In this document: piece by piece, positions 37,892 through 40,574 of the stretch | Position numbering within the stretch: position 1 is the stretch's first letter | Layout: each line of letters begins with the position of its first letter | From: a virus | Lineage: Duplodnaviria > Heunggongvirae > Uroviricota > Caudoviricetes | DNA length: 41,547 bases | Direction: 5' to 3' (one strand) | Virus record (IMG/VR): IMGVR_UViG_2529292882_000020 | Span: 1-41,547 of that record | Translations under genes and position numbers: made by a program | Notes under the pieces: model-generated | What the model was told of the DNA's origin: nothing | The model's database searches: none | The model's input: only the letters and a program-made list of their open reading frames with translations

Positions 37892-39325
37892 ATGTCTGAA
37901 TTTGAAGTGTTGGCACAGCATCTGCTGAAGGAAGCCGAGGCGGAAGAAAAGCTGCGACAGGAAAATGATAAAAAGCTTATCGAGAAAGTGCTGGAAATCT
38001 ATGATCAGAAGTATGTGGCTGAATTACTGAGAAAAGTCGGAAAAAATGAGTGGAGCCGTGAAACCATCAACCGCTGGATTAATGGCAAGTGTTTACCAAA
38101 ATCGTTGACTTCAGTAGAAGAGTCTCTTCTGCGTAAGATGCTACCAGAACCACCTGCAAACCATCCGGAATATGCTTTCCGCTTCATTGACTTATTTGCT
38201 GGAATTGGAGGGATACGGAAAGGTTTTGAGGCCATTGGAGGCCAGTGTGTTTTTACCAGTGAATGGAATAAAGATGCTGTGCGTACATACAAGGCCAACT
38301 GGTTTAACGATGAACAGGTGCATAAATTCAATCTCGATATTCGGGAAGTCACGCTGAGTGATAAAACCGATGTATTGGAAACGGATGCTTATGCATATAT
38401 TGATGAGCATGTGCCGGATCATGATGTGCTTCTTGCGGGGTTCCCGTGCCAGCCATTTAGCCTTGCTGGTGTTAGTAAGAAAAACTCACTTGGTCGTGCG
38501 CATGGTTTTGAATGTGAAGCACAAGGAACACTTTTTTTTGACGTGGCACGTATTATACGAGCAAAAAAACCGGCAATTTTTGTGCTGGAAAATGTCAAAA
38601 ATCTGAAGAGCCATGATAAGGGTAAAACTTTCAAAGTCATTATGGAGACCCTTGACGAGCTGGGCTACGAAGTTGCCGATGCTGCAGAAATGGGAAAAAA
38701 CGATCCAAAGATTATCGATGGGAAGCATTTTTTGCCTCAGCATCGTGAACGCATTGTTCTGGTCGGATTTAGACGAGATCTGAATATTCACAAGGGGTTT
38801 ACCTTGCGTGATATCAGTCGTTTTTATCCGGAACACCGCCCATCATTTGGTGAATTGCTGGAGCCTGTAGTCGACAGTAAATATATACTTACGCCAAAAC
38901 TATGGGAGTACCTTTATAACTACGCCAAAAAGCATGCAGCCAAGGGGAATGGTTTTGGCTTTGGGTTGGTCAATCCTGAGAATAAGGAAAGCATTGCACG
39001 CACACTTTCTGCCAGATATCACAAAGACGGATCAGAAATTCTTATTGATCGTGGTTGGGATATGGCAACGGGAGAGGCTGACTTTATGAATGAGAGTAAC
39101 CAGGCTCGTCGACCACGCAGGCTGACTCCCCGAGAGTGCGCACGCCTTATGGGGTTTGAAAAACCTGGAGGGAAACCATTCCGTATTCCGGTTTCAGATA
39201 CTCAGTCATATCGGCAGTTCGGTAACTCCGTTGTGGTGCCAGTATTTGAAGCCGTTGCCAGACTTCTGGAACCCTATATCCTCAAAGCTGTTTCTGCTGA
39301 TGCTGGTAAGACTGGGCAGCCTTGA
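37892..39325 (+). CDS. DNA cytosine-5 methyltransferase, EcoRII/Dcm type (CCWGG predicted)
   Basis: 477 aa from ATG 37892 (GGAGG RBS); [45 protein letters not shown] motifs. Confidence 0.85.
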
Positions 39326-39359
39326 GAACACCTCCCGGCCTTTTAAGCCGGGAGTCAGC

Positions 39360-40574
39360 CTATGATAGTTCAGCGTAAAGTTCTATCAGCTCAGTAATGA
39401 ATGCTCCGAGCGTTATTAATTCTTCTCTAACTGCTTCTGGGTATTTTTTATGTAAAGTTGATGGTACAACGAGTCTGACACCCGCATCTTTCATTTCTCG
39501 GTATTGTGCTGAAGAAACACCTTCTTGCAGCGTAAATAAATGTACCTGATGGATTTTATCTGCTTCATTCAGTATCTGACGCCAGCGATCTTTGCAGGTG
39601 GTCTTTACTGCCAGCATACGTAAGTTTTCTACAGGAAATTCAACGTTATGATATGCCTCTGCTGAAGGAAACAGGAAATCTGGTTTTTTATTACCTTCAG
39701 TAACTGCCTGAGTGGAGAAATGCCGTAGTCCGTGCTCGATAAAAAGCTTCTCTAGGTGAAGTTCAAGTGATTTACCTGCCCTTGATTTACGTCGATTACT
39801 GACAGAGTTGGCTAATGCAATAAACTCATCTACAGAATCGAATCCTTTCTTAATAATATCAAGAACATGTAATTCCTCGACGAGTAGAAAAATATCATAC
39901 TCGACACGCCGACGGTCAATCAGTTGCTCATCTGGATCCTTGGAGTTTTTAGCATAATGGCCAGCAGCATATTGAATAATTTCGTTTCCAGAAGGAAAAC
40001 GCTTCTTCCAGTCTTCAGGAATAACATATTTATGATTTACTGGAGTTTGCTGAAGAGACAATCCGCCCAAAATTTGTCCGGCAGGGCCGGAAATTAGGGT
40101 TCCAGGTATGATTTCGCCAATAGCAGACTCGATGATATCCTCTTCATCGGGATTGACGCAGACCCATATATCTACCTCGGAACAGTCAGTGTTCTGTTCG
40201 TTTAACCTGAAAGCAAGAATTGTGAGGGCTCCTGTATTTTCAGGGTTCTGTAATGGACTTCCTCTCCCCCAGCGCGTAATTCTTTTTTCGTTTCGGGTCT
40301 TACCAAAATAACGGTTGTTGTAATAAATTGCGCGTGCTTGGGTATCAGGGCAATCATGGGATGATACATGCGCAGTAAGGAAGACTGAAGGGTTCAGTTC
40401 GCGAGTATGATTGATAGATGGAAAAAGCTTTTCAACGATATTTGAGGGGATATAAAGTCCGACCTGATGGCCACCTGTTGCGCCTGTGTCGTTTGCAGAA
40501 AGACGTTTGATGTAGATAAAGTAATTCCCGCTTGCGATATCAAGCAGCCAGTTATGAAAAACCGACATATACAT
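39360..40574 (-). CDS. EcoRII-like type IIE restriction endonuclease
   Basis: 404 aa; near-collinear with R.EcoRII as recalled (YIKRLSANDTGATGGHQVGLYIP...MLAVKTTCKDRWRQILNEADKI); convergent with the methylase. Confidence 0.85.
   Translation of the reverse strand: MYMSVFHNWLLDIASGNYFIYIKRLSANDTGATGGHQVGLYIPSNIVEKLFPSINHTRELNPSVFLTAHVSSHDCPDTQARAIYYNNRYFGKTRNEKRITRWGRGSPLQNPENTGALTILAFRLNEQNTDCSEVDIWVCVNPDEEDIIESAIGEIIPGTLISGPAGQILGGLSLQQTPVNHKYVIPEDWKKRFPSGNEIIQYAAGHYAKNSKDPDEQLIDRRRVEYDIFLLVEELHVLDIIKKGFDSVDEFIALANSVSNRRKSRAGKSLELHLEKLFIEHGLRHFSTQAVTEGNKKPDFLFPSAEAYHNVEFPVENLRMLAVKTTCKDRWRQILNEADKIHQVHLFTLQEGVSSAQYREMKDAGVRLVVPSTLHKKYPEAVREELITLGAFITELIELYAELS

Follow-up and report, generated by a model that had tools for sequence, protein, structure and literature searches.

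An EcoRII-family restriction-modification system in an Escherichia coli prophage cassette shared with CMoRE, probably serving lysogen defence

Background

What does a restriction-modification (R-M) pair of the EcoRII type, predicted to act on CCWGG, do in a prophage of Escherichia coli, where the Dcm methylase of the host acts on the same sites? The question is raised by 41,547 nucleotides of viral DNA (IMG/VR record IMGVR_UViG_2529292882_000020, the whole of it here called the window), in which a preliminary description placed a methylase gene (M) and an endonuclease gene (R) as cargo of a prophage.

The methylase and endonuclease genes

The pair and its control regions consist of the following features.

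37810 to 37891, plus strand: conserved region upstream of M, likely promoter and putative autorepression site
37892 to 39325, plus strand: M, an ecoRIIM-like C5-cytosine methyltransferase of 477 amino acids with an N-terminal DNA_meth_N (repressor-type) domain
39332 to 39354, unstranded: hairpin between the stop codons of M and R, CTCCCGGC-loop-GCCGGGAG
39360 to 40574, minus strand: R, an ecoRIIR-like type IIE restriction endonuclease, 404 amino acids in the published numbering
40575 to 40641, minus strand: upstream region of R, with a likely -10 element TATAAC at 40621-40616

The two genes had been read as a convergent type IIE pair of the EcoRII family, and this is borne out by the Pfam domains, by alignment with the crystallised enzyme and by a convergent gap of 34 nt. 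The limits given for the pair were exact, 37892 being the start codon of M and 40574 the first minus-strand ATG of R. A second ATG of R at 40568, which gives 402 amino acids, is better spaced from its Shine-Dalgarno sequence and is taken as the start by RefSeq.

R has two domains, an N-terminal B3-like effector domain (EcoRII-N, PF09217, residues 18-165, E=3.9e-61) and a C-terminal PD-(D/E)XK catalytic domain (EcoRII-C, PF09019, residues 229-393, E=2.4e-71). It aligns from end to end with EcoRII in PDB 1NA6 (E=1e-242), with 346 of 401 residues identical (86%). Inactivating mutations in R had been considered possible from the start; the reading frame is full length and all 29 published functional residues, catalytic and CCWGG-contacting, are intact (residue list in PMC2770665). 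The active site residues E271, D299, K324 and E337 are all at their published positions (4/4). The residues that read the CC:GG half-site (K328-D329-R330, N260, R262) and those that form the pocket for the flipped base (R222, E225, Y226, F229, R265, A266) are kept as well (11/11), as are the contacts of the effector domain to CCWGG (N28, H36, Q37, Y85, R94, E96, R98) and to phosphates (Y41, R81, K92, T93, T100, R101; 13/13 together). R88 is also wild type.

In a profile search M matches PF00145 (E=4.7e-78) and DNA_meth_N, PF18284 (7e-27), and GGAGG is found 5 nt upstream of its start codon at 37892. The C5-methyltransferase motifs I, IV (PCQ), VI (ENV), VIII (QxRxR) and X (GN) are all present, together with a variable region resembling the one in CCWGG enzymes, and the N-terminal DNA-binding (autorepressor) domain is fused to M as in M.EcoRII, M.SsoII and M.Ecl18kI. 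M is 91% identical to plasmid M.EcoRII, without gaps, and 69% identical to Dcm of K-12. Because the motif set is complete, M looks able to methylate CCWGG alone, in agreement with the earlier proposal that the lysogen would be methylated independently of chromosomal dcm.

Compared with the plasmid allele, dN/dS is 0.044 for R and 0.033 for M (about 0.04, 0.03-0.04, for the two genes), with dS at about 1.7, where synonymous sites are saturated. Judged by domains, residues and alignments, the pair is an intact EcoRII-family type IIE R-M system with a predicted CCWGG specificity. M is predicted to put 5mC on the inner cytosine of CCWGG; R would be autoinhibited, with the binding of further CCWGG copies by its N-terminal effector domain releasing it to cleave unmethylated sites. 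Its predicted cut is at /CCWGG, would require two or more sites and would be blocked by 5mC on the inner cytosine.

The region 37810-37891 is the only upstream sequence that M has in common with plasmid EcoRII. A repeat finder gave nothing meaningful as an inverted-repeat operator upstream of M, where a conserved block of 80 nt is all that can be defined. According to PMC12707154, M.EcoRII autoregulates through its fused repressor domain, and autoregulation of this type responds to unmethylated substrate sites. The hairpin between the genes (-16 kcal/mol on the plus strand, -20 kcal/mol on the minus strand) keeps its stem in the plasmid allele while the loop differs; it is not followed by a T-run and may act as a terminator. 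The -10 element of R, TATAAT in the plasmid allele, was found by alignment with that allele. The region 40575-40641 is the putative promoter of R and is weak by consensus.

Position in the prophage

The gene order in the window is proA, tRNA-Thr (1369-1444), integrase, regulation, head, contractile tail, invertible tail fibre, pin and the cassette that carries M and R, and this supports the location of the cassette in an E. coli prophage, at its cargo end. Strain CH4799 is 99.9% identical over window positions 36019-41547; in it a repeat of the 3' half of thrW (attR) follows about 3.1 kb after the point where the window ends, which places the cassette within an element bounded by att sites. 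Within the window itself the tRNA-Thr 3' end is not repeated over 12 nt or more, and there is thus no thrW attR. In CH4799 the stretch from R to the thrW attR contains IS911 and unknown genes. The same block is found in a circular phage genome of 43.7 kb (AH02), between tail-fibre/acyltransferase genes and dinI-int. GC content is 0.41-0.46 in the cargo as compared with 0.51-0.59 in the structural genes, which marks the cargo as foreign. The prophage also encodes a Dam-type methylase.

The cassette and its slot

Four features make up the left part of the cassette and its border.

36064 to 36654, plus strand: Pin/Gin-type serine invertase of the invertible tail-fibre segment (PF00239, PF02796; annotated as pinE in relatives)
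36654 to 36700, unstranded: hairpin-repeat copy 1, between the stop codons of pin and CMoRE (-25.8 kcal/mol, z = -5.3); left cassette boundary
36715 to 37488, minus strand: PD-T4-3/CMoRE, a GIY-YIG type IV nuclease for 5hmC/5ghmC DNA
37676 to 37699, unstranded: half copy of the hairpin repeat; left junction of a 3.1-kb M-R-attP segment

The pin gene is the last core phage gene ahead of the cargo slot.

The preliminary description recognised the R-M pair and missed both its neighbour CMoRE and the nature of the locus as a cassette in a hotspot. The gene at 36715-37488 matches the PADLOC profile PDLC04031 over positions 1-255 of 256 (E=2.7e-140) and PDB 9U75 over residues 1-257 with about 98% identity (E=3.7e-172), a full-length match that includes the GIY-YIG and the modification-sensing domains. 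CMoRE cuts DNA with 5hmC or 5ghmC and neither binds nor cuts 5mC DNA (PMC12923530). The text of that paper makes no mention of a link between CMoRE and an EcoRII-type R-M pair.

The cassette measures 4.2 kb (36654-40830), and a common block from 36652/4 to 40830 recurs across different backgrounds; homology to AH02 and to prophages of the ssrA type starts at 36652/36654. By this shared block, CMoRE and the R-M pair are a two-system cassette present in several different prophages, in a slot between the tail-fibre/pin genes and the attachment site, with hairpin repeats at the junctions of the cassette. The backgrounds are contractile-tail prophages with pin at thrW (the window and CH4799), lambdoid prophages with gpJ and Lom at ssrA, and a degraded e14-like prophage at ssrA. 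The co-occurrence of CMoRE and the R-M pair is shared descent of one cassette and not a set of independent associations, and does not of itself speak for functional synergy.

The content of the slot varies. K-12 e14 has mcrA after pinE, strain E275a has CMoRE with an Mrr_cat nuclease, and O157:H7 has CMoRE with an AraC gene. The half copy at 37676-37699 was recognised by comparison with E275a, which is without the M-R-attP segment, and hairpin-repeat copies 1 and 3 can be aligned with each other. In one genome (H22) IS100 is inserted in the cassette.

A wider reading of these observations is offered tentatively, and it is doubtful as a whole. The slot from pin/tail fibre to att in e14-like and lambdoid prophages could be a defence hotspot driven by recombination, with the hairpin repeats (36654-36700, 37676-37699, 40824-40862) as swap junctions. 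CMoRE and EcoRII could together be an evolutionary trap, in which T-even-like phages that shed cytosine hypermodification to evade CMoRE become substrates of EcoRII. The terminator supplied by the phage (see below) could be a safety device that makes it tolerable for a toxic R to follow immediately after ssrA, which is transcribed very strongly.

The terminator and the attachment site

Upstream of R the window contains the following.

40642 to 40675, minus strand: intrinsic terminator, with its stem at 40652-40675 and a T-tail
40804 to 40830, minus strand: copy of the ssrA (tmRNA) 3' end, core of an unrecombined attP(ssrA); its reverse complement is TTCAACTCCCGCCAGCTCCACCA
40824 to 41006, unstranded: the other attP(ssrA) arm, with hairpin-repeat copy 3 (40824-40862)

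A strong minus-strand terminator had been noted here and interpreted as insulation of R against read-in transcription. The hairpin is genuine. It has a stem of 10 bp and a loop of 4 nt, followed by TTTTTGTTTTT on the minus strand, and folds with -22.3 kcal/mol (z = -5.0; none of 200 shuffled sequences folds as well). The GC-rich stem-loop with its UUUUUGUUUUU tail on the minus strand is predicted to be a Rho-independent terminator. It is not specific to the R-M pair, for it lies in an attP arm common with phage LLS: alignment places the same hairpin in the attP region of LLS, in circular phage AH02 and, in strain VTB96816v, at the junction with ssrA, and the LLS arm with the hairpin carries no R-M system there. 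Homology to plasmid EcoRII stops at 40584 in BLAST, with patchy similarity to about 40640. These alignments assign the terminator to the attP arm of ssrA-integrating phages, not to the R-M unit.

What the window has of ssrA is about 27 nt of the 3' end, revealed by alignment; ARAGORN and Rfam found no complete tmRNA in the window, only tRNA-Thr. Homology to ssrA-junction loci ends at 40830. The other arm is common to the AH02 phage up to 40930 and to E275a up to 41006, and HK97-like phages have unannotated DNA that matches window positions of about 40822-40930. Two phage arms around a copy of the ssrA 3' end are the structure of an attP site, and no cognate integrase adjoins it in the window. 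The recombined junction of R, terminator and ssrA occurs in 129 genomes and the unrecombined configuration in 112.

The hairpin would be a terminator that ssrA-integrating phages supply to ssrA, replacing the native one in ssrA lysogens, where it would stop ssrA transcripts from entering R. Insulation of R is thus predicted for ssrA lysogens but not for the window, which has no ssrA upstream. The attP(ssrA) came unrecombined into a prophage integrated at thrW, and the hairpin is there a carried-over feature.

Distribution of the allele

The allele in the window was found with at least 99% identity in 263 records, at 268 chromosomal places, among 5426 complete E. coli genomes. In the same genomes an allele with about 80% nucleotide identity is present on plasmids in about 150 records, and the window allele is found on none of the plasmids. 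By these searches it is a separate, chromosome-only, prophage-borne allele. The original placement in a prophage rather than on a plasmid holds, as the circular 43.7-kb phage genome also carries the system and IMG/VR viral contigs encode its R. The R protein WP_000110239.1 is identical in the four chromosomal loci inspected (4/4), and an R 100% identical to that of the window occurs in at least 34 IMG/VR contigs; M corresponds to RefSeq WP_001288444.1. Among deposited phage genomes there was no close EcoRII, the matches being Burkholderia phage KL3 and two faecal fragments with 38-40% identity.

EcoRII-type restriction in E. coli would accordingly have two deeply diverged reservoirs, a plasmid allele and a prophage allele, the latter in about 5% of complete genomes and always linked to the recently characterised CMoRE. 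This may help to annotate defence systems and to predict where phage therapy or gene transfer would meet a barrier. The cassette is also an example of temperate phages trading defence cargo beside their attachment sites.

Role of the system

The EcoRII-family pair, as half of a two-system prophage cassette with CMoRE, is quite likely a defence of the lysogen. The analysis shows what the system is, that it is intact, how it is built and where it occurs, whereas its enzymatic specificity, expression and defence benefit are what we infer from sequence. EcoRII would act on incoming DNA that lacks CCWGG methylation, that is DNA from hosts lacking Dcm, and CMoRE would act on T-even-like phages, which escape EcoRII through their modified cytosines. 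Full methylation of prophage and progeny DNA is probably a further effect of the extra methylase.

EcoRII restriction depends on Dcm, in that plasmids from dcm+ donors are not restricted, and chromosomal Dcm is reported to protect against it (PMC11602122). The dcm-vsr pair is present in 5359 of the 5426 complete E. coli genomes (query coverage of at least 80%). Because dcm is nearly universal, the defence benefit may be small, other E. coli DNA being already protected. The prophage does not avoid CCWGG, with 75 sites in 35.2 kb compared with 74.6 expected from base composition; a third-order Markov expectation is higher, 119.5, and is given without a host-genome baseline. The lack of avoidance fits protection by methylation and gives no sign of restriction pressure. 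No vsr gene was found, whether in the cassette or elsewhere in the window.

The system might instead serve the phage itself. M would then fully methylate induced phage DNA so that progeny survive in recipients with EcoRII, on IncN-type plasmids or in other carriers of the cassette, and R would be a secondary means of superinfection exclusion. Canonical EcoRII is common on enterobacterial plasmids, the prophage has its Dam-type methylase as well, and an analogous model exists for Burkholderia phage KL3 (PMC3091744). The response of autoregulation to unmethylated sites, as reported in PMC12707154, would raise M during phage replication. However, host Dcm already methylates CCWGG sites, and R, like M, is under strong purifying selection, which implies that R is not dispensable. 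This explanation is unlikely.

The preliminary description had suggested that excision or loss of the prophage could cause post-segregational killing. The pair would then stabilise the prophage, as cells without it would dilute the methylase until residual endonuclease cuts. Such killing has been described for EcoRII (cited in PMC3424554), R and M are intact, and the cassette is at the very end of the prophage. Addiction is an attractive but probably wrong inference. Most carriers have dcm-vsr, another methylase for the same sites: were all 67 genomes that lack it carriers, they would still be a minority of the approximately 263 carrier records. Dcm is reported to protect against killing after disturbance of EcoRII (Takahashi 2002, as cited in PMC3424554), and near-universal host Dcm would neutralise the effect. 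The cassette is also found in degraded prophages, where stabilising excision-competent DNA is not at issue. The suggestion was therefore judged improbable.

That R is inactive or unexpressed, leaving a second Dcm-like orphan methylase, is very improbable. The promoter matches of R are weak, there is little to restrict in a dcm+ population, and the IS100 insertion in H22 would suit a decaying locus. Against this stand the full-length frame of R with its catalytic, recognition and effector-domain residues all intact, its dN/dS of 0.044 over saturated dS, and the recurrence of WP_000110239.1 and of identical R in the loci and contigs counted above.

Least credible is an island separate from the prophage and abutting it: the right end is composite, because R is separated from the thrW attR by attP(ssrA), unrecombined in the window, and in CH4799 by IS911 and unknown genes, and cassette GC differs from the phage core, but the block lies within the thrW direct repeats in CH4799, and its presence inside a circular phage genome and directly abutting the junction in ssrA prophages rules against this.

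Comparison with known systems

Lysogen defence remains the preferred reading, and the enzymes concerned are mechanistically not new but ordinary members of a well-known family. The attachment site resembles those of ssrA-integrating phages (LLS attP with its tmRNA pseudogene; CP4-57 in K-12), which also have a copy of the ssrA 3' end and, downstream of it, a terminator hairpin in place of the native sequence that is displaced. Between window positions 40651 and 40838 the arm of LLS shows 91% identity. In contrast to these phages, the attP in the window is unrecombined; no cognate integrase adjoins it, and the prophage around it is integrated at thrW.

Burkholderia phage KL3 is another temperate phage with a CCWGG-type endonuclease and a C5 methylase. 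Its endonuclease matches the C-terminal part of R only (residues 169-395, 39% identity), and its module is co-directional with a vsr of its own, in a P2-like phage of another host. Closer in position is mcrA of K-12 e14, a nuclease defence gene in the same slot directly after pinE and before the att site of an e14-family prophage. Unlike R, McrA is an HNH-type type IV nuclease without a partner methylase, and the integration site of e14 is icd.

E. coli Dcm-Vsr has a methylase core 69% identical to M and the same predicted target, whereas M is paired with an endonuclease instead of vsr and has the N-terminal region of M.EcoRII. The neighbour in the cassette is the same protein as PD-T4-3/CMoRE (PDB 9U75, 9U7U), with about 98% identity to the crystallised O157:H7 enzyme.

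The most similar system is EcoRII of IncN-type plasmids (PDB 1NA6/3HQF/3HQG). It has the same two-domain endonuclease, in which the residues of catalysis, CC:GG contact, base-flipping pocket and effector domain are those kept in R, and its methylase likewise has 477 amino acids, with the same regulatory domain fused at the N-terminus. In both systems the genes converge across a short gap whose hairpin is conserved, and the 80 nt ahead of M are conserved too. The window allele differs by its DNA identity of about 80% (86-87% in R and 91% in M at the protein level), with synonymous sites saturated, and by its flanks, which are phage DNA here but IS26 or IS1 on the plasmids.

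The EcoRII-type gene pair and its neighbours

The preliminary description placed an EcoRII-type restriction-modification (R-M) system with the target CCWGG at 37892-40574. These coordinates are exact. The ORF listing and Pfam identify two convergent genes, a methylase (M) and an endonuclease (R), in the following surroundings.

36064-36654, Pin invertase, within the invertible tail-fibre segment and before the cargo
36654-36700, hairpin repeat between pin and CMoRE (dG -25.8 kcal/mol, z = -5.3)
36715-37488, minus strand, PD-T4-3/CMoRE gene adjoining the R-M pair; full-length PADLOC match to PD-T4-3, E=2.7e-140
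37676-37699, half copy of the hairpin repeat
37892-39325, plus strand, M, 477 aa; PF00145 E=4.7e-78, PF18284 (N-terminal methylase domain) E=7e-27
39360-40574, minus strand, R, 404 aa; EcoRII-N PF09217 and EcoRII-C PF09019
40642-41006, attP: terminator arm, 27-nt ssrA 3'-end core, second arm
40652-40675, stem of an intrinsic terminator, U-run on the minus strand (dG -22.3 kcal/mol, z = -5.0)
40824-40862, full copy of the hairpin repeat, in the attP arm

The start of M is ATG 37892 and not the in-frame upstream ATG 37850, because GGAGG lies 5 nt upstream of the former; motifs I, IV, VI, VIII and X are present. PDB 1NA6 aligns with R end to end (E=1e-242, 346/401 residues identical). The functional residues listed in the EcoRII-DNA structure paper (PMC2770665) are all kept at their published positions (29/29): the active site (E271, D299, K324, E337), CC:GG readout (K328, D329, R330, N260, R262), the flipped-base pocket (R222, E225, Y226, F229, R265, A266), base contacts (N28, H36, Q37, Y85, R94, E96, R98) and phosphate contacts (Y41, R81, K92, T93, T100, R101) of the effector domain, and R88. 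With these residues and the full-length alignment, R carries no hidden inactivating mutation as far as can be read from its sequence.

Prophage setting and distribution

The window is E. coli chromosome. Its gene order begins with proA, tRNA-Thr (thrW, 1369-1444) and a tyrosine integrase (1459-2622) and continues with lambdoid-type regulation, an HK97-type head, a contractile tail, the invertible tail-fibre segment and the cargo. Strain CH4799 is 99.9% identical over 36019-41547 and has a repeat of the thrW 3'-half about 3.1 kb past the window end, and the cargo therefore lies inside an att-bounded element. In strain AH02, a circular 43.7-kb sequence labelled a "plasmid" is really an entire phage genome, with the same block between tail-fibre or acyltransferase genes and dinI-int. 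Both observations bear out the earlier claim that the R-M system is carried inside a prophage.

A search of 5426 complete E. coli genomes found this allele (at least 99% identity) in 263 records at 268 chromosomal places; the plasmid places belong to an allele of about 80% identity. An identical R is encoded by at least 34 IMG/VR viral contigs, in most cases with 636 nt between it and the end of the contig, and no close EcoRII copy was found in the deposited phage genomes searched.

Several other prophage features were observed. A phage Dam-type N6-adenine methyltransferase is encoded in the early region (9736-10422, plus strand; PF05869 E=1e-45), so that together with M the prophage has two DNA methylases. 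In the invertible segment (33823-36654), the genes for tail-fibre C-terminus and assembly form two opposed sets, one on the plus strand (34620-35222) and one on the minus strand (35194-35637 and 35642-36073), and such a segment likewise adjoins a Pin/Gin-type invertase in e14, Mu and P1. GC content in the window is lowest (0.38) in the kilobase that contains a 248-aa ORF (13415-14161, minus strand) without a Pfam match. Over its N-terminal half, this ORF matches CBASS-type HNH endonuclease effectors and PDC-M68A, a candidate system in PADLOC (E=7.5e-27); it lies near the lysis genes and may represent another defence moron, the second in the prophage. Lower-GC stretches also encode a DUF2303 protein and two ORFs without a family match (4171-4995, minus; 15704-16417, plus; 5331-5741, minus).

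A probable defence cassette with CMoRE

The product of 36715-37488 shares about 98% of its residues with the crystallised CMoRE of O157:H7 (PDB 9U75), a type IV GIY-YIG nuclease that degrades the 5hmC and 5ghmC DNA of T-even phages (PMC12923530). CMoRE does not bind or cut DNA that is unmodified or carries 5mC (PMC12923530) and is therefore compatible with CCWGG methylation. It is present in 838 genomes, and the R-M pair is almost always beside it: at least 80% of a spanning 4.8-kb query was covered in 242 records. All contexts share one block, 36652/36654-40830, which was found in the following settings.

Pin-bearing contractile-tail prophages at thrW (window, CH4799)
Lambdoid prophages with gpJ and Lom, at ssrA
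A degraded e14-like prophage at ssrA
The circular AH02 phage

The equivalent slot holds mcrA after pinE in K-12 e14 (locus L012, 6347-7180), CMoRE and an Mrr_cat nuclease after pinE in strain E275a (locus L010, 6248-7159), and CMoRE and an AraC regulator gene in O157:H7 TW14359 (locus L011). Such different cargo makes the locus a variable defence slot adjoining the attachment site and indicates a probable defence hotspot after pinE in e14-family prophages. A hairpin-forming element of about 40 nt (AAACCGYAGCACGTCGTATGCAAGAA...CGTGCTGCGGTTT) occurs three times at cargo-module boundaries, and comparison with strain E275a places the 3.1-kb M-R-terminator-core segment (37700-40822) between its half and full copies. 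The repeats may plausibly be recombination junctions for cassette swapping.

Origin of the terminator

The hairpin at 40652-40675 has the predicted form of a textbook intrinsic terminator. Homology to plasmid EcoRII ends short of it, and its segment shares 91% identity with the attP region of phage LLS, where a tmRNA pseudogene is annotated and R-M is absent. In an alignment of ssrA and attP regions, the genuine ssrA of strain VTB96816v runs through the shared core TTCAACTCCCGCCAGCTCCACCA into the arm bearing the hairpin. Across the core from this arm, the sequence of the window and of the circular AH02 phage is a second phage arm, which makes the site an unrecombined attP; K-12 CP4-57 has a different hairpin in the equivalent position. 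The alignment, the likeness to LLS and the stop of plasmid homology together argue that the hairpin is the replacement ssrA terminator of ssrA-integrating phages.

The terminator had been described as insulation of R against read-in transcription. In effect this holds for half of the carriers: in 129 genomes the terminator stands between ssrA and an R gene that begins 235 nt downstream on the same strand, and it is predicted to insulate R there from ssrA transcription, which is strong. The terminator has another origin, however, in an ssrA-phage attP arm beyond the plasmid homology. The unrecombined attP of the window was found in 112 complete genomes; in this configuration there is little to insulate R against because the genes right of attP are on the opposite strand.

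Inside a thrW-integrated prophage, the window thus carries the attP of a phage that integrates at ssrA, complete and unrecombined (40642-41006). The second arm of this attP matches unannotated DNA of HK97-like phages, and no cognate integrase was found beside it. Just right of this remnant is a 156-aa ORF (41077-41547, plus strand), annotated as hypothetical in CH4799 (WP_000868823.1), with no match in Pfam or PADLOC. In CH4799, IS911 and two further unknown genes lie between it and the thrW attR.

Possible function

Defence cargo in prophages is a well-known setting, and defence of the lysogen would be the most likely role of the cassette, with EcoRII acting on DNA without CCWGG methylation and CMoRE on hypermodified T-even phages. 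EcoRII restricts plasmids from dcm- donors only, and not those from dcm+ donors (PMC11602122). Post-segregational killing upon prophage loss, proposed earlier, is unlikely in a typical host because dcm-vsr is present in 5359 of the 5426 genomes, and so in most carriers, and Dcm is stated to protect against killing after EcoRII loss (PMC11602122; PMC3424554). No vsr was found in the cassette, which presumably relies on that of the host.

The 75 CCWGG sites counted in 35.2 kb of the prophage match the number predicted by base composition, and its protection would therefore depend on methylation rather than site avoidance. With an additional CCWGG methylase, phage DNA might be kept fully methylated while it replicates, which the autoregulation described for M.EcoRII-type enzymes (PMC12707154) would suit.

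Comparison with known systems

As a whole, the preliminary description proves correct in its observation and partly right in its interpretation. Noteworthy are that the R-M pair is constantly linked to CMoRE, that the slot has a hotspot structure in which hairpins form the junctions, and that a toxic gene has the ssrA terminator immediately upstream; these points are of modest interest and leave current understanding unchanged. The R-M system belongs to a thoroughly known enzyme family, of which it is a new allele not yet characterised. Its M shares 69% identity with K-12 Dcm. A representative plasmid copy, PCN061p6, is canonical EcoRII (911.7 bits against 1NA6), and the plasmid EcoRII unit is homologous to 37810-40584 by BLAST, with patchy likeness to about 40640. 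Compared with this plasmid allele, M is 91% identical without gaps and R is identical at 350/402 positions. The dN/dS values of 0.044 (R) and 0.033 (M), with dS about 1.7-1.8 (Nei-Gojobori), indicate an old divergence of the two alleles under strong purifying selection on both genes. A published precedent for a phage-borne relative is the EcoRII-C/Vsr/methylase module of Burkholderia phage KL3.
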